From a candidate division FCPU426 bacterium (GTDB lineage: Bacteria > Oederibacteriota > Muellerivitia > Muellerivitales > Muellerivitaceae): a stretch of DNA of 64,000 bases. Shown here one piece after another: positions 12,549 to 21,409 of this stretch (positions are counted from its first letter, which is position 1; each line of letters begins with the position of its first letter). The translations under genes and the position numbers were made by a program. The notes under the pieces were generated by a model. It ran no database searches. It had not been told where the DNA came from and saw nothing but the letters and a program-made list of their open reading frames with translations. The stretch lies in assembly GCA_963771075.1 (NCBI GenBank), contig CAVYSE010000023.1, forward strand, positions 1-64,000. The letters run 5' to 3'.

Positions 12549-12577
12549 TTGACGGGGTTGGAAGTGGTTTTTATAAT
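12549..12577 (+). promoter_or_regulatory. sigma70-type promoter for tRNA-Thr(UGU)
   Basis: TTGACG-17bp-TATAAT. Confidence 0.8.
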
Positions 12578-12677: not shown

Positions 12678-12753
12678 GCTGGGGTAGCTCAGTTGGTAGA
12701 GCAGCCGCCTTGTAAGCGGCAGGTCGCCGGTCCGATTCCGGTCCCCAGCTCCA
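12678..12753 (+). tRNA. tRNA-Thr(UGU)
   Basis: Acceptor GCTGGGG/CCCCAGC, anticodon arm GCCGC-CT TGT AA-GCGGC, encoded CCA; T-loop TCCGATT. Confidence 0.95.
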
Positions 12754-12854
12754 TTTTTAACAGGCATGAAGCCGCCGCGCCCCAAAATTTTGGCGGTTTC
12801 CCGATGAGGCAGTACCGGACCATTCCGGGACGCGTTGCTCCTGAAAGGCAGGAC

Positions 12855-14549
12855 ATGGCCACCACCCTCGAGTTCAAGAACTGGCTGCGCGGCGTCAAAG
12901 ACAAAAAAAAGAACGAGATTACGAAGGTCCTGGGCGTCGAATACGCGCATCTCACGCTCGAGACGGGCGAACTCTACGTCACCTCCCACGGTTTACCCCT
13001 TTTGAGGCTATTGGATCCCTCCAATTACTGGCTGGACAAGGACTGGTTTGAGGGGCATTCCACACGGCTTTCCGGCACCAGTTCCGTTTACAAGATCAGG
13101 ACCAAGGAATCCGAGGGTCGGTCCAGGGATATCGTGATGAAATGGAACCGCATGGGACAGGACATTCCCGGCGCCGAGGAACTGGATATCCTGGAGGGGG
13201 CGGAGTTCAACAGCCCCTTCGAGGAATTCTCCCTTCTTTTCGAGTTGCGGCGCAATTTGTACCATTCCGGCCCCCGTGTCATGGTCCAGAAACCCCTTGC
13301 CATCTTCGTGGCCTCCGGGTCCGTGGACCTTTGGCAGAGCGGCCGTAAAGAATATAAGATGAAAAACAAACTTCGTTCCCACAATGAAGTGACCCTCGAT
13401 ATGCACCGGCTCTACGCAGTGATCTACGAATGGATCAAGGGCATCGACGCCCACCACGCGTTCCGGACCGGCCTCATCAGCCGGGAGAATATGAAGGGCC
13501 TGGCCCTGGACGCCCAGCAGGTGATGGAGAAAACCGGATACAAGGTCCGGGACAACAAACCGGACCATATCATCGTCCGGCCGAAGAAGGATCACACCCT
13601 TTTACACAACCGCCGGGGCGAGACCGTCTACGCCCTGGTGGATTTTGAGCTATTGGAACGCACCCTGACCCAGGAGGAGCAGGTTCGGCGGGAAAAGAGG
13701 CTCGAATACCTCAAACGTCAGCGGGATCGGTTCAAGGCGCCCGTATCGGACAGCCCCTATTCCCACCTGCATCCGGTAAACCACCTGGGGGTTGATTATA
13801 TTTACGGTAGGGTGGAGAGCGTGAAGGGGCGTCTCTGGGTGGTGGGGAAGGACCCGGTTCTTTACGACTACTTCCTGCCGGAACGCTGGCGCCACTTTCC
13901 CAAGACCAAGATCTCCGTCTACGGCGAGATGTACCACACGATCACCAAGGACGGCGTTCACCTCGTGTTGCAGGCTTCCCGGGTGGGGCAGCAGCCGGAC
14001 CTGGACCCTTTCCGCGAGGACGAACAGAAGATCCAGGCCCACGGATACAACAGCCCTTTTGAGGTGGTGTCCCTGGCGCTCGACCTCAATCTACGAGGCG
14101 TGGCCTGCATCTATCCGCGGGCCATCTACATGTCGGAAACCGAGGCGGGTATCTCGAGCACCGTGTTCGACGGATCGCGCTACCATAGCAATGAGGGTAT
14201 CACCACCCCGGACGGCGAGCCAATCCTCAAACCCAACCGGGATTACATCGTCATCTGGGGTTATTGGAACGGACCTGACGAGAAGCTGGCGGACCAGGAC
14301 GGGGATTATTACGAGGGCATTGACGCGTTGCGCGCGTACAAGGAGAATCTCATCGATAAGGACCTGTATTTCAACCTTTTGCGCCGGACCAAGGAAAAGT
14401 TGGCTTCCTTGGGGGTGGAGGACCTGAACCTCAGGGGTAACCATGTCATGGTCTCGAAGGATAGCCGGGGCCGCCTGGTCCAGGACGACCACGGTTTCCC
14501 CGAACTGCGGTTATGCAATTTCGAGTTTCTCAAGAAGATGAAACCCTAG
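12855..14549 (+). CDS. Uncharacterised 564-aa protein with two tandem protein-kinase-like repeats
   Basis: ATG 12855 after GAAAGGCAGG; internal duplication (LGVEY/LGVDY, NSPFEE/NSPFEV, GIDA/GIDA, DFE/NFE); repeat 1 has RDNKPDH and DFE motifs. Confidence 0.75.
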   Translation: MATTLEFKNWLRGVKDKKKNEITKVLGVEYAHLTLETGELYVTSHGLPLLRLLDPSNYWLDKDWFEGHSTRLSGTSSVYKIRTKESEGRSRDIVMKWNRMGQDIPGAEELDILEGAEFNSPFEEFSLLFELRRNLYHSGPRVMVQKPLAIFVASGSVDLWQSGRKEYKMKNKLRSHNEVTLDMHRLYAVIYEWIKGIDAHHAFRTGLISRENMKGLALDAQQVMEKTGYKVRDNKPDHIIVRPKKDHTLLHNRRGETVYALVDFELLERTLTQEEQVRREKRLEYLKRQRDRFKAPVSDSPYSHLHPVNHLGVDYIYGRVESVKGRLWVVGKDPVLYDYFLPERWRHFPKTKISVYGEMYHTITKDGVHLVLQASRVGQQPDLDPFREDEQKIQAHGYNSPFEVVSLALDLNLRGVACIYPRAIYMSETEAGISSTVFDGSRYHSNEGITTPDGEPILKPNRDYIVIWGYWNGPDEKLADQDGDYYEGIDALRAYKENLIDKDLYFNLLRRTKEKLASLGVEDLNLRGNHVMVSKDSRGRLVQDDHGFPELRLCNFEFLKKMKP

Positions 14550-14599
14550 GGTTATTGCTAGATCTTCTTTTGGAGGGGGTGTTCCTCCTTTCAATATAG

Positions 14600-14660
14600 T
14601 TCATATTCCCGAATCGAGTTGTCATTTCCAATATCCTTTGTCATTCCCAATATCCGTTGT
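14600..14660. repeat. 19-bp direct repeats upstream of pckG
   Basis: ttgtcatttccaatatcct (14619-14637), ttgtcattcccaatatccg (14638-14656), plus a degenerate copy at 14600-14618. Confidence 0.6.
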
Positions 14661-14708
14661 TAAACTCCACAACCAACCCAAAGATTTTTACCTCTTTATT
14701 GGAGGGTA

Positions 14709-16493
14709 ATGATGACGAACAACCGGAAATTGCTGGCATGGGTGGAGGAAGTCAAGGCCCTGTGCAAACCCGACCGTGTGGAATGGGCGAATGGTTCCCA
14801 AGAGGAGTATGATCGTCTTTTGAACGAGTTGGTTTCCTCGGGAAGCGCCATTCCTCTGAACTCCCGCAAGCGTCCCAATAGTTTCCTGTTCCGGTCCGAT
14901 CCTTCCGACGTGGCTCGTGTCGAGAGCCGTACCTACATCGCCTCCGTTCAAAAGGACGACGCAGGCCCTACCAACAATTGGATCAACCCCGTCGAGCTCA
15001 AAAAGACCATGCGGCAACTATACGATGGTTGCATGAAGGGCCGTACGTTGTATGTCATCCCCTTCTCCATGGGCCCCATCGGTTCCCCGATCTCAAAAAT
15101 AGGAGTTGAAATCACCGACTCGGCCTACGTGGTCGTGAACATGCATATCATGACGAGGGTGGGAGAAAAGGTTTTAGAGTCGTTGGGCGAGAACGGCGAG
15201 TTCGTCCCTTGCCTGCATTCCATCGGGTATCCCCTGTCTTCAGGGCAGGCCGACAAGGCCTGGCCTTGCGCACCCATCGAACAGAAATATATCGCGCATT
15301 TTCCAGAGGAAAACCTCATTTGGTCATACGGCTCCGGCTATGGCGGAAACGCGCTTCTGGGCAAAAAATGCTTGGCCCTGCGCATCGCATCGGTCCTTGC
15401 CCGGCGGGAGGGATGGTTGGCCGAACACATGCTTATCCTGCGCCTGACGAATCCGCAAGGGAGGCGTTTTCATATCGCCGCGGCCTTCCCCTCCGCCTGC
15501 GGCAAGACCAATCTGGCCATGCTGGTACCCACCATCCCAGGGTGGAAATGCGAGTGCCTTGGGGATGATATCGCCTGGATGAAAATCGGTACCGACGGAA
15601 AACTGTACGCGATCAATCCCGAAGCCGGATTCTTCGGCGTGGCGCCCGGCACCTCGATGAAATCGAATTCCATGGCCATGCGTACCATTGAGAAAAATAC
15701 CATCTTCACCAACTGCGCCCTGACTGACGAAGGGGACGTCTGGTGGGAGGGCATGGACGAAACCTGCGAGCATTCCATCGATTGGAAGGGTCGGGAATGG
15801 ACGACGGCATCCCCTGAACCGGCCGCGCACCCTAACGCCCGTTTTACCACTCCCGCCGCGCAATGTCCGGTCATTTGCCCCGATTGGGAGGACCCGGAGG
15901 GCGTCCCTATCGATATTTTCATATTCGGGGGCCGGCGTTCGACCACGGTGCCACTCGTACACCAAGCGTTTGATTTCGAGCATGGGGTTTATCTGGGCGC
16001 TTCGGCCTCCTCCGAAACCACTGCGGCGGCCCTGGACGTGGGGCAGAAACTGCGCCGCGACCCCTTTGCCATGACCCCTTTCATCGGATACCACGCGGGC
16101 GACTATATCCAGCATTGGTTCAACATGGGGGAACGGATGGGAAACAGGGCACCCGCTGTTTTCTACGTGAACTGGTTCCGGAAGAACCGGGAAGGCCGGT
16201 GGCTGTGGCCCGGATTCGGCGAGAACAGCCGTGTCCTGAAATGGATTTGTGAACGCGTGGAAGGAAAGGTCGGAGCGGTAGAGACACCCATCGGACTTAT
16301 GCCTAAAGAAGGCGATTTAGACCTGACCGGCCTTAAGATTTCTCGGGGGGATTACGAGGAGCTGATGACTGTCAATCGGGACGCTTTTAAGGCCGACCTG
16401 AAGGATGCGGATGCTTATTTTTCCCAATTTGGGAGCCGGATGCCCGAGAAAATGAAGAAACAATTATCGGCGGCTAAACAGCGGTTGGAATAA
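14709..16493 (+). CDS. pckG: Phosphoenolpyruvate carboxykinase (GTP)
   Basis: [63 protein letters not shown]. Confidence 0.97.
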
Positions 16494-16556
16494 GCGGTTT
16501 TCGTCCCGGCTTAAACGCGGTTCAAGATTTTACGCAAAGCATTGAAGTCTTATTCC

Positions 16557-17321
16557 CTATTTAATGGCGACGGGTTCTGGTTCTTGTGTTTCAGGGATTT
16601 CCAACAGTTGTTGCACGTATGGAATGACCTTGATGTCGGGCCTATCCAACTCCCTCCTAAGGTTTTGAAAGGTCGTCTCGGGCCATCCGCCCTGGAACCA
16701 GTTGACCAGCCAAGCCGCCAGGCCGCCTTTGGGATCGCAATGAATTTCCGCTTCCACATAGGTTTCGTCCGGGCATTCTTCCACCAATGTGAAAGTGCAG
16801 GTCATGACCCCTCTTTTGTAATTTTTCTTGACCGGAGCCAGGGGATCGTTCAACGGCGTGTATTTCACGGTGACGTGTCGATGAAGGGAATCGGTTTCAA
16901 CCGTGACAAGTGAAACAAAATCCCGATCGGAAACGAAGGCGTCAAATGGGAAGGGGATCCCCATGTGGTCATATTCGGAGAATTGAAATGGGCCCAAATT
17001 CCGCAGCACTTTCGATTCGACCAGGCTGTCGATCCATTCCGTTCCCCGCGTGGTATCGATGATGACGGAGGCGACCTTGGCGATGGGGGCTTCCACCATT
17101 CCTTCGCCTTTGAGGGCCATGATCTCCGTTCCAGGCACCTTGCTGGAATAAAGTCGGATTCCGTCCGAGTTGGAGGTTTGCTGCCATTGATAGGTTGATT
17201 CGGGTATGGCGGAAAGCTCGGTGACGGCCTCGGTGGCCTGGGTGGGAGATGGGGAAGCCGTTTGACACCAAACCGGTCCGGTGAGGACCCAAAGAGCCCA
17301 TATCCAGGTTGTTTTATTCAT
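16557..17321 (-). CDS. Secreted START-domain (lipid-binding) protein
   Basis: RBS AAGGGGG before MNKTT; signal peptide; DGIRLY, PFPF..SDRDFV, DPKGGLAAWLVN START motifs. Confidence 0.75.
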   Translation of the reverse strand: MNKTTWIWALWVLTGPVWCQTASPSPTQATEAVTELSAIPESTYQWQQTSNSDGIRLYSSKVPGTEIMALKGEGMVEAPIAKVASVIIDTTRGTEWIDSLVESKVLRNLGPFQFSEYDHMGIPFPFDAFVSDRDFVSLVTVETDSLHRHVTVKYTPLNDPLAPVKKNYKRGVMTCTFTLVEECPDETYVEAEIHCDPKGGLAAWLVNWFQGGWPETTFQNLRRELDRPDIKVIPYVQQLLEIPETQEPEPVAIK

Positions 17322-17385
17322 GATACCCCCTTTTGAATAGGGCATAAGATAACATCCTGGGTAAAATTCTTCCGCATAAAGTTGA

Positions 17386-17414
17386 TTGACATGAGTTCAA
17401 CCCTCATGGAAAAT
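17386..17414 (+). promoter_or_regulatory. sigma70-type promoter for tRNA-Tyr
   Basis: TTGACA-17bp-GAAAAT; CATGAG-N7-CTCATG palindrome across the spacer. Confidence 0.6.
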
Positions 17415-17446
17415 CATTCGCCCATACAAGCTTTTAAGACTTTTGT

Positions 17447-17533
17447 GGACAGGTGCCCGAGTGGTCAATGGGAGCAGACTGTAAATCTGCCGGCCGACGG
17501 CCTTCGAAGGTTCGAATCCTTCCCTGTCCACCA
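17447..17533 (+). tRNA. tRNA-Tyr(GUA)
   Basis: Acceptor GGACAGG/CCTGTCC, anticodon GCAGA-CT GTA AA-TCTGC, long variable arm, GGTTCGAATCC, CCA. Confidence 0.96.
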
Positions 17534-17627
17534 TTTATTTTATTTGTCCCTGAAGTTTTGGCGGTTCGATAACGCCTCTCCAACTGCCCAAGTGGAGGAT
17601 ATTGAAGTGCGGGTTGAGGTCTAGGTT

Positions 17628-17660
17628 AAAGGGTGGTCCCGGAAGGGGCTGCCCTTTTTT
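17628..17660 (+). terminator. Rho-independent terminator downstream of tRNA-Tyr
   Basis: aaagggtggtccc-ggaa-ggggctgccc-tttttt. Confidence 0.75.
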
Positions 17661-17789
17661 ATTTGCGGATTTTGAGGTTCGCTCCCTTTCCGCTTAGGAT
17701 GCGTCCGGGGGCGGAAAGGGAAATTGAGGGAGCGCTTCGAGTCGTACTTTACTTTTCGTATATAATATGGGATACATTTGGACAAATTT

Positions 17790-17864
17790 GCGGGAGTAAT
17801 TCAGTGGTAGAATGCCACCCTTCCAAGGTGGACGTCGCCGGTTCGAATCCGGTCTCCCGCTCCA
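17790..17864 (+). tRNA. tRNA-Gly(UCC)
   Basis: Acceptor GCGGGAG/CTCCCGC, anticodon CCACC-CT TCC AA-GGTGG, GGTTCGAATCC, CCA; TATAAT at 17761-17766 upstream. Confidence 0.96.
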
Positions 17865-17919
17865 TTTTTTTTGCGACACCTTCAATCCCCTTTCGAAACC
17901 CGACCCAAGGAATTCGTGA

Positions 17920-19719
17920 ATGGCACAAGAGAAGAAGATCTCGATAAACGATATCCCGGGCAACCCCAATCCAGTGATTGAGATGAACGAGTTCATGGAT
18001 GACCGAGTTATTCTTTACGGCCATCCCGGCCTTTGTAAGACTACCGGTGAACTGCTCTCCAGTGATGGTTTCCGTTTGGTACTTGAACATTTTTTGGACC
18101 AGTTATCCAAAAAGAATTCACCGGTTCTCTCATGCATCCAAGCTTTTAAGCTTAAAGAGGGGTATGACGTTCCCAAACTGGCAGGGTTTTTTAAGACCCT
18201 GCTCGATGACCAGATATCCGAGGCCGCTTTGGCGAATGTGGACCGGGTTGTTTTAAAGGATTTTTTGGAGGAACTCTACACCTATTGGCGCCGGCGGGAA
18301 CGTTTCGTGATCTATGACCGGGACGAAAAGCATGGAAGCATAGACCTGAAAGATTACCACCAGATTTTTATCGAGGCTAATGAGCAATTCAAATTCCTGG
18401 TGTTGAACACCTACCGAGTCATGAGCGCTCAGGTGATGGGTGATTGGTTCAAGGTTTACCGGCAGATTCCCTCGGGCACGGGAATGTCGCTCCTGGCCGA
18501 AAAAATAAATTGGGACATGCCGGGCGAACAATACCAAAAGCTGAAGAATATACCCTTCATCCGTCTTTCACTGATTTACCCTCCCCTGATTTATTACACC
18601 AAGAGCAACAGCCGCAAAGGTAAGTTCAGCCCCCTTTCCAAGAACCCGCTGGACACCATGGGTCTGGATCCAACCCGCTGGATCTGTTTCCCGGCCAAGA
18701 TTGGCGGGCTCTTCATCCACATTTTTTTCCACAAGAACTTCTTATCCCACGCGGCGGGGCTCTCCAATCTTTTCGAGTTGGCCAGCGCCCAGGAGATCGC
18801 CAACCATAAGCCGGACGGCATCATGCTTTTCGGCGTGGACCCATCCCTGATGAACAACCAACTGGTTGGTTTTTACGAAGATGTCCCGAACGGGGTGATT
18901 GTGGGGGCGGTCGCCTACCACCTGACCGACGTGGATTATTTCGGCTATTTCAAGAAAACGGCCTTGACCCTGCATAACTTGATCATGATCGAACGCGGGA
19001 ACCTGCCCATCCACGGGGCCATGGCCAAGATCGACCTGAAATCGGGGAAAAGCGCCCATGTAGTGATTGTGGGGGACTCCGGCGCGGGGAAGTCCGAGTC
19101 GCTGGAAGCTTTCCGCGTGTTGGCCGATCAGTACATCCGCCAATTGACGGTGGTATTTGACGATATGGGATCCCTTTCCATTGATCCCAAGGGGCAGGTA
19201 TCAGCTTTCGGCACGGAGATCGGGGCCTTTGTTCGATTGGACGATCTGCATCCGGGTTATCCTTATACCGAAATCGATCGGGCGGTTTTTATGAATCCCC
19301 ACTTAGGCAACGCGCGGGTTGTCATGCCGATCACCGAGTTCCGCCATGTGATCGCGGGTTATCCGGTCGATCTGTTCCTATACGCGAACAATTACGACGA
19401 TGTTGATGATGAGCATCCCGCCCTGGAGATCATGTCCGACGCCGTGGAAATTGGCGAGGTGTTCGCTAGCGGCGCGCGTTTGGCAAAGGGTACAACCGAT
19501 GAGAAGGGCCTTGTTCACACCTATTTCGCCAATCCTTTCGGCGCCCCCCAAAAGAAGAAAAAACACCAATTCCTGGCGGACAAGTACATCGGGCAATTGC
19601 TGAAGAACGGCAAAAAGGTGGGTCAGCTCCGGACCCGGTTGGGGATTCACGGGTTTGAAACCAAGGGTCCCGAGGAAGCCGCACAGGCCCTTTTCCAGTA
19701 CATTACTAACAATCTCTAA
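17920..19719 (+). CDS. Atypical PEP carboxykinase-superfamily protein
   Basis: YFGYFKK, PIHGA, P-loop GDSGAGKSE, VFDDMG, GTEIGAF, NAR motifs in the same order as ATP-PEPCK catalytic motifs; N-terminal half unrecognisable. Confidence 0.75.
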   Translation: MAQEKKISINDIPGNPNPVIEMNEFMDDRVILYGHPGLCKTTGELLSSDGFRLVLEHFLDQLSKKNSPVLSCIQAFKLKEGYDVPKLAGFFKTLLDDQISEAALANVDRVVLKDFLEELYTYWRRRERFVIYDRDEKHGSIDLKDYHQIFIEANEQFKFLVLNTYRVMSAQVMGDWFKVYRQIPSGTGMSLLAEKINWDMPGEQYQKLKNIPFIRLSLIYPPLIYYTKSNSRKGKFSPLSKNPLDTMGLDPTRWICFPAKIGGLFIHIFFHKNFLSHAAGLSNLFELASAQEIANHKPDGIMLFGVDPSLMNNQLVGFYEDVPNGVIVGAVAYHLTDVDYFGYFKKTALTLHNLIMIERGNLPIHGAMAKIDLKSGKSAHVVIVGDSGAGKSESLEAFRVLADQYIRQLTVVFDDMGSLSIDPKGQVSAFGTEIGAFVRLDDLHPGYPYTEIDRAVFMNPHLGNARVVMPITEFRHVIAGYPVDLFLYANNYDDVDDEHPALEIMSDAVEIGEVFASGARLAKGTTDEKGLVHTYFANPFGAPQKKKKHQFLADKYIGQLLKNGKKVGQLRTRLGIHGFETKGPEEAAQALFQYITNNL

Positions 19720-19813
19720 GAGCCACAATCATCGAACCCGTAGAGGCTGTTCGCGTAAGTTGGAATTGTGTCCACCTTAACCTGATTATTTCTAACTTTA
19801 AGGGGAGGTCATC

Positions 19814-21223
19814 ATGGAATTTCGTATTGAGCATGATTCCATCGGCGAGTTAAGGGTTCCTGGGGATGCGCTCTGGGGGGTGCAGGCCCAAAGGGCGGTC
19901 GAAAATTTCCCTATCAGCGGGATCAAACCCCACCCGGTGTTTATCGAAGCCACGGTTCACATCAAAAAAGCCGCGGCTCGTTTCCATGGTAAGGTCGGCA
20001 TGCTGGACAAGAAAAAGGCCGCCGCCATCGTAAAGGCCGCCGATGAGATTTTGAATAAGGGAAAATGGCTTGACCATTTCGTGGTTGATGTCTACCAGGC
20101 CGGAGCCGGCACCAGCCACAACATGAATACCAATGAGGTTTTGGCCAACCGCGCAATCGAGATCCTGAAGGGCAAGCGAGGCGACTACAAACTCATCCAT
20201 CCCAACGACCATGTGAACATGGGCCAATCCACGAACGACGTGATCCCCACGGCCATCCGCTTGTCAGGTCTACTCCTGACGAGGTCTTTTCTTCCGGTCC
20301 TGAAAAAACTAGCATTGACCTTCCGAAAAAAAGGAAAAGAATTCAGATTCGTTTACAAATCGGGTCGTACCCATCTTCAAGATGCGGCGATCATGACCCT
20401 GGGACAAGAATTCAACGCTTACGGGGAGAATCTGGAGCGTCATGCGAAACGGGTTGAGCGGGCCTCGGAAGATTTGTGTGAATTGGGCATTGGCGGATCG
20501 GCTGTCGGGACGGGCCTGAATACCCATAAGGATTACTGCGCGGACATGGCCAAGCTCCTGTCCGAACAAACGGGGTTAAGACTTAAGCCCCATCCCGATC
20601 TCTTTGAGGCTATGCAAAGTTTGTCCCCGGCAGTCTCCCTATCAAATGCCTACCGGAGTTTGGCCCTGGACCTCATCCGCATCGCCAACGATTTTCGCCT
20701 GATGACCAGCGGACCCGCCACGGGTTTTGGGGAAATCACCTTGCCGATCATGCAGCCCGGCTCCTCCATCATGCCCGGAAAGGTGAACCCCGTCATGGCG
20801 GAATGCCTCAATATGGTCTGCTACCAGGTGTTGGGCCATGACACCACCGTGGCTTTCGCGGCCCAGGCGGGCCAGATGGAACTTAATGTCATGATGCCTG
20901 TTTTAGCCTATAACCTGAACCAGGAAATCCTTTTGATGACAAATATGCTCAAAGCCTTTGATGAAAAGTGCGTTTCCGGCGTCCGGGCGGAAGAGGGACG
21001 CTGCCGCCAATACGCGGACCAGAGCAGTCAGGTGGCGGCGGCTTTGAACCCTGTGATCGGTTATGAGAAGGCGGCGGAAGTGGTCAAGGCTTCCTTAAAA
21101 GAGGGCAAAACGGTGAAACAGGTGGTCCTCGAGAAGAACCTTTTAAGCGAAGCACAATACCAACAATCAGTGCGGTTGGAAAAGCTGGTGGACCCCCACG
21201 GGCGGATGTCCAAGAAGAAATAA
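19814..21223 (+). CDS. Aspartate ammonia-lyase / class II fumarase family enzyme (AspA-like)
   Basis: QAGAGTSHNMN, HPNDHVNMGQSTND, GRTHLQDA, GSSIMPGKVNP; GAGTS and QSTND favour aspartase over FumC. Confidence 0.88.
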   Translation: MEFRIEHDSIGELRVPGDALWGVQAQRAVENFPISGIKPHPVFIEATVHIKKAAARFHGKVGMLDKKKAAAIVKAADEILNKGKWLDHFVVDVYQAGAGTSHNMNTNEVLANRAIEILKGKRGDYKLIHPNDHVNMGQSTNDVIPTAIRLSGLLLTRSFLPVLKKLALTFRKKGKEFRFVYKSGRTHLQDAAIMTLGQEFNAYGENLERHAKRVERASEDLCELGIGGSAVGTGLNTHKDYCADMAKLLSEQTGLRLKPHPDLFEAMQSLSPAVSLSNAYRSLALDLIRIANDFRLMTSGPATGFGEITLPIMQPGSSIMPGKVNPVMAECLNMVCYQVLGHDTTVAFAAQAGQMELNVMMPVLAYNLNQEILLMTNMLKAFDEKCVSGVRAEEGRCRQYADQSSQVAAALNPVIGYEKAAEVVKASLKEGKTVKQVVLEKNLLSEAQYQQSVRLEKLVDPHGRMSKKK

Positions 21224-21283
21224 GAATGGGCCATCGGAAAGAGAAAACTCCTCTAAAATCAGCAGGTTTTGGCCCGCTTTTTC

Positions 21284-21311
21284 TTGACAGGGGGGTTTCG
21301 AAACGTAAAAT
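21284..21311 (+). promoter_or_regulatory. sigma70-type promoter for tRNA-Thr(GGU)-tuf
   Basis: TTGACA-16bp-TAAAAT. Confidence 0.75.
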
Positions 21312-21333
21312 ACATCCTCTTGCAATTACCCCC

Positions 21334-21409
<76 letters not shown>

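Follow-up and report, generated by a model that had tools for sequence, protein, structure and literature searches.

Phosphoenolpyruvate (PEP) carboxykinase (PEPCK) sets the direction of flux between glycolysis/gluconeogenesis and the tricarboxylic acid cycle. Among described switches of carbon metabolism, AceK turns isocitrate dehydrogenase off by phosphorylating a hydroxyl residue of its active site and has a second, ligand-sensing domain; PDRP/PSRP is not of the protein-kinase fold; and plant PEP carboxylase kinase targets a terminal regulatory serine, not a catalytic lid. According to passages of a review of the PEP-pyruvate-oxaloacetate node (PMC8100219), PDRP/PSRP (DUF299) exerts on/off control of PPDK and PEP synthase through phosphorylation of an active-site threonine, and in plants a C3/C4 carboxylase has a protein kinase of its own; these passages name phosphorylation control of PPDK and PEP synthase, of plant PEP carboxylase (PEPC) and possibly of one bacterial pyruvate kinase, describe little as known of it for bacterial PEPC, and name no bacterial PEPCK kinase. 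Here we analyzed a gene at positions 12855..14549 (forward strand) of the window, a stretch of 64,000 nucleotides of contig CAVYSE010000023.1 from a candidate division FCPU426 bacterium (assembly GCA_963771075.1). It encodes a tandem kinase-pseudokinase of 564 amino acids, and pck, the gene of a GTP-dependent PEPCK, starts 159 bases 3' of it on the same strand. We consider it somewhat probable (about 0.55) that the first repeat is a dedicated threonine kinase of PEPCK and the second a regulatory pseudokinase.

The protein resembles AceK, of the IDHK family: both are divergent members of the kinase fold whose genes lie with those of carbon-node enzymes. It differs from AceK in lacking any match in Pfam or NCBIfam (E <= 1), in its target, which would be PEPCK, and in its second domain, which is a duplicate of the kinase itself. 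With PDRP/PSRP it would share the role, proposed here, of a dedicated node-enzyme switch at an active-site threonine, whereas PDRP is ADP-dependent and has other targets, and PPDK is never a neighbour of the kinase here. Plant PEPC kinase, unlike this protein, is of the eukaryotic type and acts on a different enzyme. From the Kdo/WaaP/WaaY (PF06293, PF06176), RIO and Bud32 kinases it is set apart by the lack of a hidden Markov model (HMM) match, by a domain that stops just past the DFG-equivalent Asp and by another gene context, and from eukaryotic-type Ser/Thr kinases (PF00069, PknB) by the lack of a Pfam match, of the activation segment and of the C-lobe helices. An active kinase joined to a dead copy is also seen in JAK and in plant Yr15/WTK (for the plant type, see the relevant part of PMC6170490), but those are full eukaryotic-type domains, while here a minimal bacterial domain was duplicated independently; JAK 7t6f aligns over both halves only at a root-mean-square deviation (rmsd) of 20. 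AceK and PDRP were not among the listed fold matches, and absence from this list does not exclude either. Judged by profile tests, this would be an undescribed kinase family that works like AceK or PDRP and is a member of neither. A literature search, with subscription papers and supplements outside its reach, found no description of the family or of a bacterial PEPCK kinase.

Structure of the tandem protein

Full-length homologues share the start Met of the 564-aa protein. Aligned to each other, its two halves are 23% identical over 265 columns (E 2e-12), with a Smith-Waterman score of 132 against 34 +/- 5 (maximum 56) in 1000 shuffles, and a profile-profile comparison of the halves gives a probability of 99.6 (E 4.7e-24, 234 columns). 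The protein is a true internal duplication, as the initial annotation had claimed; the paired repeat motifs that it listed are present in the translation and in the half-versus-half alignments. It was also right that there is no transmembrane helix, since the highest 19-residue hydropathy mean is 1.25, and that no named family applies: 0 families were found in Pfam and NCBIfam at E <= 1, and the PDB gave no match by sequence or by profile. Repeat 1 (12912..13670, forward strand, approximately residues 20-272) is a minimal protein-kinase-like domain carrying G74, K96, E124, D233, K235-P236, H238 and D263, and stops a few residues past D263. A linker helix and loop (13665..13769, forward strand, residues 271-305) lead to repeat 2 (13770..14537, forward strand, approximately residues 306-561), a conserved pseudokinase with N525 and N555 at both catalytic Asp positions.

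The AlphaFold2 models have predicted local distance difference test (pLDDT) values of 88.9 (whole chain) and 96.0 (repeat 1). All 50 VIA matches listed for the repeat 1 model are kinase-fold chains or siderophore synthetases, the best Z of 9.4 being reached by APH 4pdy (rmsd 3.2, 135 residues aligned) and WaaP 6dfl (rmsd 4.8, 169 aligned); the adenylating siderophore synthetases have Z of 8.1-8.5. Foldseek yielded 320 matches at E <= 0.001 (best E 1e-5), the listed ones all kinases. No kinase family stands out by fold, as APH, WaaP, ABC1, BRAF, RIO and Bud32 are tied at Z 8.6-9.4. The repeat 2 part of the whole-chain model (residues 287-563) matches PINK1 (Z 8.0, rmsd 3.9, 156 aligned). In these models both halves take the protein-kinase-like bilobed fold that had been anticipated from the motifs, without the usual C-terminal helices.

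Passages of Kannan et al. (PMC1821047) name the IDHK family among the kinase-like families and list ten key residues of protein-kinase-like proteins, including the equivalents of G52, K72, E91, H164, D166, N171, D184 and D220, with [LI]KPx as a mark of Ser/Thr protein kinases. In repeat 1, G74, K96, E124, D233 and D263 are the conserved equivalents of G52, K72, E91, D166 and D184, and K235-P236 corresponds to the Lys-Pro of [LI]KPx, the residue before it being variable and mostly polar. Conservation was assessed in 182 homologues (118 close, 32 divergent and 32 short one-domain ones). K235 and D263 are present in all of them; D233 in 117/118, 32/32 and 32/32, respectively; E124 in 118/118, 32/32 and 31/32; H238 in 118/118, 31/32 and 32/32; K96 in 117/118, 30/32 and 29/32, the remainder having Arg; and P236 in 111/118, 28/32 and 30/32. 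R99, R164, R185 and Y187 are near-invariant as well. Thus the active-type set read in the initial annotation (Lys, Glu, catalytic Asp and the Asp of DFE, with His at the Asn position) is kept across the family. Repeat 1 deviates at the equivalents of N171 and H164, with His238 for Asn and Val231 for the His of HxD. It stops just past D263, and therefore the activation segment and the alphaF helix with the D220 equivalent are absent; several one-domain members likewise end within 10 residues of the DFG-equivalent Asp.

Repeat 2 has both catalytic Asp residues in 0 of 119 rows, in agreement with the earlier view that it is catalytically dead. Among the 118 close homologues N525 is found in 109 and N555 in 113, while R442, Y464, W468, G528, H530 and R552 are invariant, and columns conserved at 95% or more are as common as in repeat 1 (68/255 versus 57/249). 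Because it is as conserved as repeat 1 though never with both Asp, repeat 2 appears to be a selected pseudokinase. Four substitutions had been reported for it (Lys to Gln, Glu to Val and two Asp to Asn). All four are real in this copy, but the first two are not family traits: Lys is kept at the beta3 position in 91/118 and Glu at the alphaC position in 117/118 close homologues, so that by sequence comparison these two changes are local decay outside the family pattern. The dead state follows from the two Asp-to-Asn changes and the loss of the Gly-loop glycine. That repeat 2 binds a nucleotide or metabolite and thereby tunes repeat 1 is the most weakly inferred part of our proposal; since one-domain relatives exist, repeat 2 should be dispensable for the core activity.

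Predicted contact with the PEPCK lid

The predicted substrate is the product of pck (14709..16493, forward strand), a GTP-dependent PEPCK of 594 amino acids with PEPCK_GTP and PEPCK_N matches and an NCBIfam match (PRK04210) above the cut-off. Co-folding of repeat 1 with this PEPCK gave a score of 0.70 (runs 0.70, 0.73 and 0.57), the best of three controls reaching 0.00; among solved complexes 116 of 157 reach the mark used for co-folds, among mismatched pairs 2 of 215, rough counts for which own alignments were used. At least 75% of contacts are shared between the runs, and the partner pLDDT is at least 84. The interface on the PEPCK side comprises residues 436-446 and 494-503. Its first part is the omega-loop lid (16014..16046, forward strand), in which the predicted phospho-acceptor Thr438 (codon 16020-16022) contacts construct residue 218, that is, D233 at the catalytic-base position of repeat 1 (codon 13551..13553, forward strand), while PEPCK residues 439-440 contact K235. 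Repeat 1 is thus predicted to bind the PEPCK lid; the PDB contains no sequence relative of the kinase that the model could have memorised.

Residues 425-464 of the window's PEPCK align without gaps to residues 452-491 of the cytosolic enzyme, and so Thr438, Ala440 and Arg450 correspond to rat Thr465, Ala467 and His477. Ala467 is described as the latch and His477 as the hinge of the lid in the relevant part of PMC12529880, and lid closure, according to passages of PMC11370597, is essential and keeps enolpyruvate from being protonated to pyruvate. We propose that repeat 1 would hold ATP and metal through K96, E124, H238 and D263, that the open PEPCK lid would enter its cleft, and that D233 would activate Thr438 for phosphorylation. 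A phosphate on the lid would hinder latching over the active site, so that PEP formation would be switched off or the enolate would leak to pyruvate. The outcome would be the avoidance of futile cycling with PEPC, pyruvate carboxylase/oxaloacetate decarboxylase (OadA/PycB) and malic enzyme. A kinase gene beside one of these enzymes would then co-express the brake with the enzymes of the futile cycle, a view that fits the presence of PEPCK in those genomes too. A bolder version seems to us unlikely: here the family would be the first dedicated bacterial PEPCK kinase and, by phosphorylating the universally conserved lid threonine, would go beyond silencing PEPCK and turn it into an oxaloacetate decarboxylase that directs C4 carbon to pyruvate instead of PEP, with the attached pseudokinase sensing the state of energy or carbon supply or removing the phosphate again.

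Two apparent signatures in PEPCK were rejected. A hydrophobic residue at 442 and Trp498, enriched in kinase-positive genomes in a first set, failed in a new set of 30 kinase-positive and 40 kinase-negative PEPCKs (3/30 versus 12/40 and 10/30 versus 13/40, respectively). A PEPCK clade of 21 rows confined to kinase-bearing genomes came from a quick tree with negatives of one class, and with better negatives 17 kinase-adjacent rows stayed pure.

Gene linkage and competing explanations

Gene neighbourhoods were collected for the best 80 of 469 genome matches and the best 80 of 257 metagenome matches, together 160 loci, a set biased to close kin and with many short flanks; enzymes were counted by tblastn, the calls of open reading frames (ORFs) being crude in GC-rich DNA. 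Of the genome loci, 19 have pck as the immediate neighbour, 6 have OadA/PycB and 4 have malic enzyme (29/80); of the metagenome loci, 18 have malic enzyme, 9 a DUF4914 gene, 5 PEPC and 2 pck (34/80), which totals 21 pck, 22 malic enzyme, 9 DUF4914, 5 PEPC and 6 OadA/PycB; a sixth PEPC lies 4 kb off in a DUF4914 metagenome locus, and malate dehydrogenase, isocitrate dehydrogenase and fumarase are single cases. The pck gene is upstream of the kinase in some loci and downstream in others. On a tree of 152 repeat-1 sequences adjacency to pck and adjacency to malic enzyme each need at least four changes.

In one protein, P0272, the tandem kinase and a complete GTP-PEPCK share a single reading frame, connected by a Pro/Ala-rich linker. 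Moreover, GTP-PEPCK is encoded in 83 of 85 kinase-bearing genomes, including those with the kinase beside malic enzyme, OadA/PycB, PEPC or DUF4914, the backgrounds being 43/201, 152/221 and 230/251 in even genome samples and 2/14 in controls. In the 221-genome sample the PEPCK C-domain model matched 18/19 kinase-positive and 134/202 kinase-negative genomes (p 0.009, uncorrected for kinship). Within the taxonomic family of the window's organism, three of 15 relatives have the kinase with an adjoining pck, one has a distant pck alone and 11 have neither; the tRNA Thr-Tyr-Gly cluster that houses the pair in the window is unbroken in the kinase-negative relatives L278 and L279, and the pair is inverted and shifted in two others. 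Kinase and pck come, go, move and invert as a block in this family. The tie to PEPCK suggested in the initial annotation is strong: direct neighbours in several kinase lineages, one fusion and 83/85 co-occurrence.

The direct neighbours of the kinase span at least four unrelated enzyme folds, as might be expected if repeat 1 instead phosphorylated a small molecule, be it a C3/C4 acid of the PEP-pyruvate-oxaloacetate node, bicarbonate or a side product, as a kinase or phosphotransferase, and adjoined whichever enzyme makes or uses this compound. R99, R164, R185 and Y187, which lie outside the named co-fold interface, could form an anion site for such a substrate, the named proteins that it most resembles are sugar and antibiotic kinases, and the peptide-binding C-lobe is absent. 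However, there is no obvious gap for such an enzyme to fill. Pyruvate kinase is encoded in 47 of 50 kinase genomes and, together with PPDK, in the genome of the window, by which we also rejected a role of the kinase as a replacement for either; both were neighbours in 0 of the 160 loci. Nor would a metabolite kinase explain the co-fold with the lid Thr on D233, or the presence of GTP-PEPCK in genomes with other neighbours. On balance we regard this explanation as possible, though unlikely.

The co-fold supports binding alone, and the protein might bind the PEPCK lid and act otherwise, as a nucleotide-gated stoichiometric inhibitor or scaffold, by another modification such as AMPylation, or in a phosphatase-like reverse reaction. 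Kinase-fold enzymes with other chemistry are known (SelO, SidJ). The His in place of the metal-binding Asn, the loss of the HxD His and of the alphaF Asp, and the adenylating siderophore synthetases among the fold matches would all suit such a reading; the K-E-D-K-D phosphotransferase set, kept in almost all 182 homologues, and the hydroxyl residue placed at the catalytic Asp in the co-fold speak against it, and we find it rather unlikely.

On the tree, kinases of one subfamily tend to share their type of neighbour (19 changes versus 59.7 when shuffled), a pattern that would be in keeping with protein kinases that have subfamily-specific targets (malic enzyme, PEPC, OadA/PycB or DUF4914), or with one broad node-enzyme kinase for which PEPCK is a local case. 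A chimeric ORF in two loci (L139:132-2693 and L141:2941-5502), made of a truncated PEPC and a one-domain kinase without its start, could be cited in favour; since both parts are truncated, it is probably a deletion junction, and we rejected it as a true fusion, as we did a 1171-codon frame in G518 that proved to be the antisense of an oppositely read gene. The would-be targets have unrelated folds and GTP-PEPCK is present almost whatever the neighbour, which makes this explanation quite doubtful. A lipopolysaccharide (LPS)-core or other sugar kinase of the Kdo/WaaP/WaaY type, beside pck by accident, is very improbable, given that neither the query nor 71 diverse homologues match the Kdo/WaaP (PF06293) or WaaY (PF06176) models at E <= 0.01 (three weak ABC1 matches were seen), that the scanned neighbours include scattered glycosyltransferases only and no LPS-core cluster, and that linkage to and fusion with carbon-node enzymes recur.

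We thus prefer the dedicated PEPCK kinase, against which the following observations have to be set. In the even genome samples a node enzyme lies within 1.5 kb of the kinase in 3 of 35 cases (a rough chance estimate being 2e-4) and is pck in none, most kinases there having unrelated neighbours; in one genome (G527) pck is 6 kb away, and fumarate hydratase adjoins one more kinase (44 of 82 neighbour ORFs scanned). The P0272 fusion is a singleton, one sequence on one contig. Co-occurrence is uninformative in the phylum with pck in 230/251 genomes, and kin are not independent; of the two exceptions, both incomplete genomes, G038 has only an ATP-PEPCK and G008 neither type. The co-fold covered only repeat 1 and the window's PEPCK; it lacked ATP, its output is contacts rather than distances, and the model may place any flexible Thr-bearing loop in a kinase cleft. 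Thr438 is present in 70/70 PEPCKs, from kinase-positive and kinase-negative genomes alike, no tested lid or interface residue tracks the kinase among the 30 positive and 40 negative PEPCKs, and the kinase-only clade seen at first was in part due to sampling. Repeat 1 lacks the activation segment and C-lobe helices with which protein kinases hold peptides, and in a comparison of language-model features the named clusters that come nearest are LPS sugar kinases (Kdo/WaaP/WaaY), with low shared-feature counts of 137-154 of 256.

The window locus and the wider family

In the window, metabolic genes are inserted in a tRNA Thr-Tyr-Gly-Thr-tuf cluster (12678-21409): the kinase, pck and a START-domain gene between Thr and Tyr, and the gene at 17920 and a fumarase-like gene between Gly and Thr. 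Gene order and orientation in this cluster differ in G719 and G721, and no integrase was noticed in the region. The left edge of the kinase-pck-START insertion is tRNA-Thr(TGT) (12678..12753, forward strand), preceded by a sigma-70-type promoter-like site (12549..12577, forward strand) with 11/12 matches to the consensus, a consensus match alone. No terminator-like sites were found between tRNA-Thr, kinase and pck, and the promoter-like site possibly drives the three together. The START-domain gene (16557..17345, reverse strand) is probably a passenger, since it accompanies the kinase only within this genus. The gene at 17920-19719 (forward strand) has a 599-aa product that contains a P-loop and resembles PEPCK_ATP weakly (E 0.003, short of the cut-off); it may be an unnamed PEPCK-like enzyme. 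This product had been proposed as a possible partner of the kinase, but this did not hold: it accompanies the kinase in 1 of 160 homologous loci and also occurs in the tRNA cluster of kinase-negative relatives.

The family is spread over many uncultured phyla. A word-seeded search found at least 2404 clusters among 8000 candidates scored, the named ones among the 120 matches listed being all 'hypothetical', and a HMMER scan of 50% representatives found 611 members. It is patchy and single-copy in the even genome samples (2/201, with a third weak hit at E 5e-4 left out of the count, 19/221 and 16/251) and is present in 3 of 25 relatives of the window's genome. Its forms are the tandem of about 565 amino acids, one of about 650 with a longer second half (P0134-P0153, a subfamily; forms of that length adjoin malic enzyme), and a one-domain form of about 300 that corresponds to repeat 1; in loci such as L132, L134, L137, L147, L161, L173 and L200 the one-domain gene closes with a stop codon and is followed by other genes. 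A metagenome scan with one one-domain protein as the query found nothing, while a tighter alignment as the query gave matches. Two singletons carry additions, an N-terminal GNAT domain (P0123) and an unmatched C-terminal extension of about 190 amino acids (P0135). In the ESM Atlas, P0226 retrieved an unnamed cluster (305 amino acids, 142 members, most of them from Actinomycetota; score 0.93, 175 shared features), which may be a further one-domain branch; Actinomycetota are known to use GTP-PEPCK.

Several neighbours were noted in addition. The DUF4914 gene is directly upstream of one-domain kinases in its nine loci (among them L161:3033-4952, L173, L193, L200 and L201), and its product, with motifs like those of PEPCK, can be aligned to the window's enzyme, though weakly (E 0.02); it is probably an uncharacterised PEP carboxykinase, and a literature search on the term DUF4914 found no paper. 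In 30 of 50 kinase genomes the GTP-PEPCK belongs to a divergent clade of about 626 amino acids, about 30% identical to the window's enzyme and with the lid threonine kept (L039, L066, L118-L128). Genes with EIIA domains of the phosphotransferase system are near the kinase in L010, L013, L019, L031 and L054, in many cases together with transporters of the Na/H-exchanger or CBS-domain type, and may be a second PEP-sensing link. Polyphosphate kinase 2 adjoins the kinase in L060, L068, L076, L080 and L217, four of these having the order pck-kinase-ppk2, and Cache-domain histidine kinases adjoin it in L027, L036 and L051, from three phyla, followed in two by a sigma-54-type regulator.

In summary, our analysis contributes a fusion, co-occurrence, block movement and one named, testable candidate phosphorylation site, Thr438, and ties the wider family to other C3/C4 carboxylating enzymes besides PEPCK. 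If the proposed role is true, AceK and PDRP would be joined by a third kinase switch dedicated to one enzyme, and there would be a natural means of locking the PEPCK lid, which bacteria and mammals have in common, with the same threonine in rat PEPCK (Thr465). It would also assign a role to the at least 2404 clusters of a family so far without annotation, add a kinase architecture without C-lobe helices, and represent an undescribed on/off switch of bacterial carbon metabolism.

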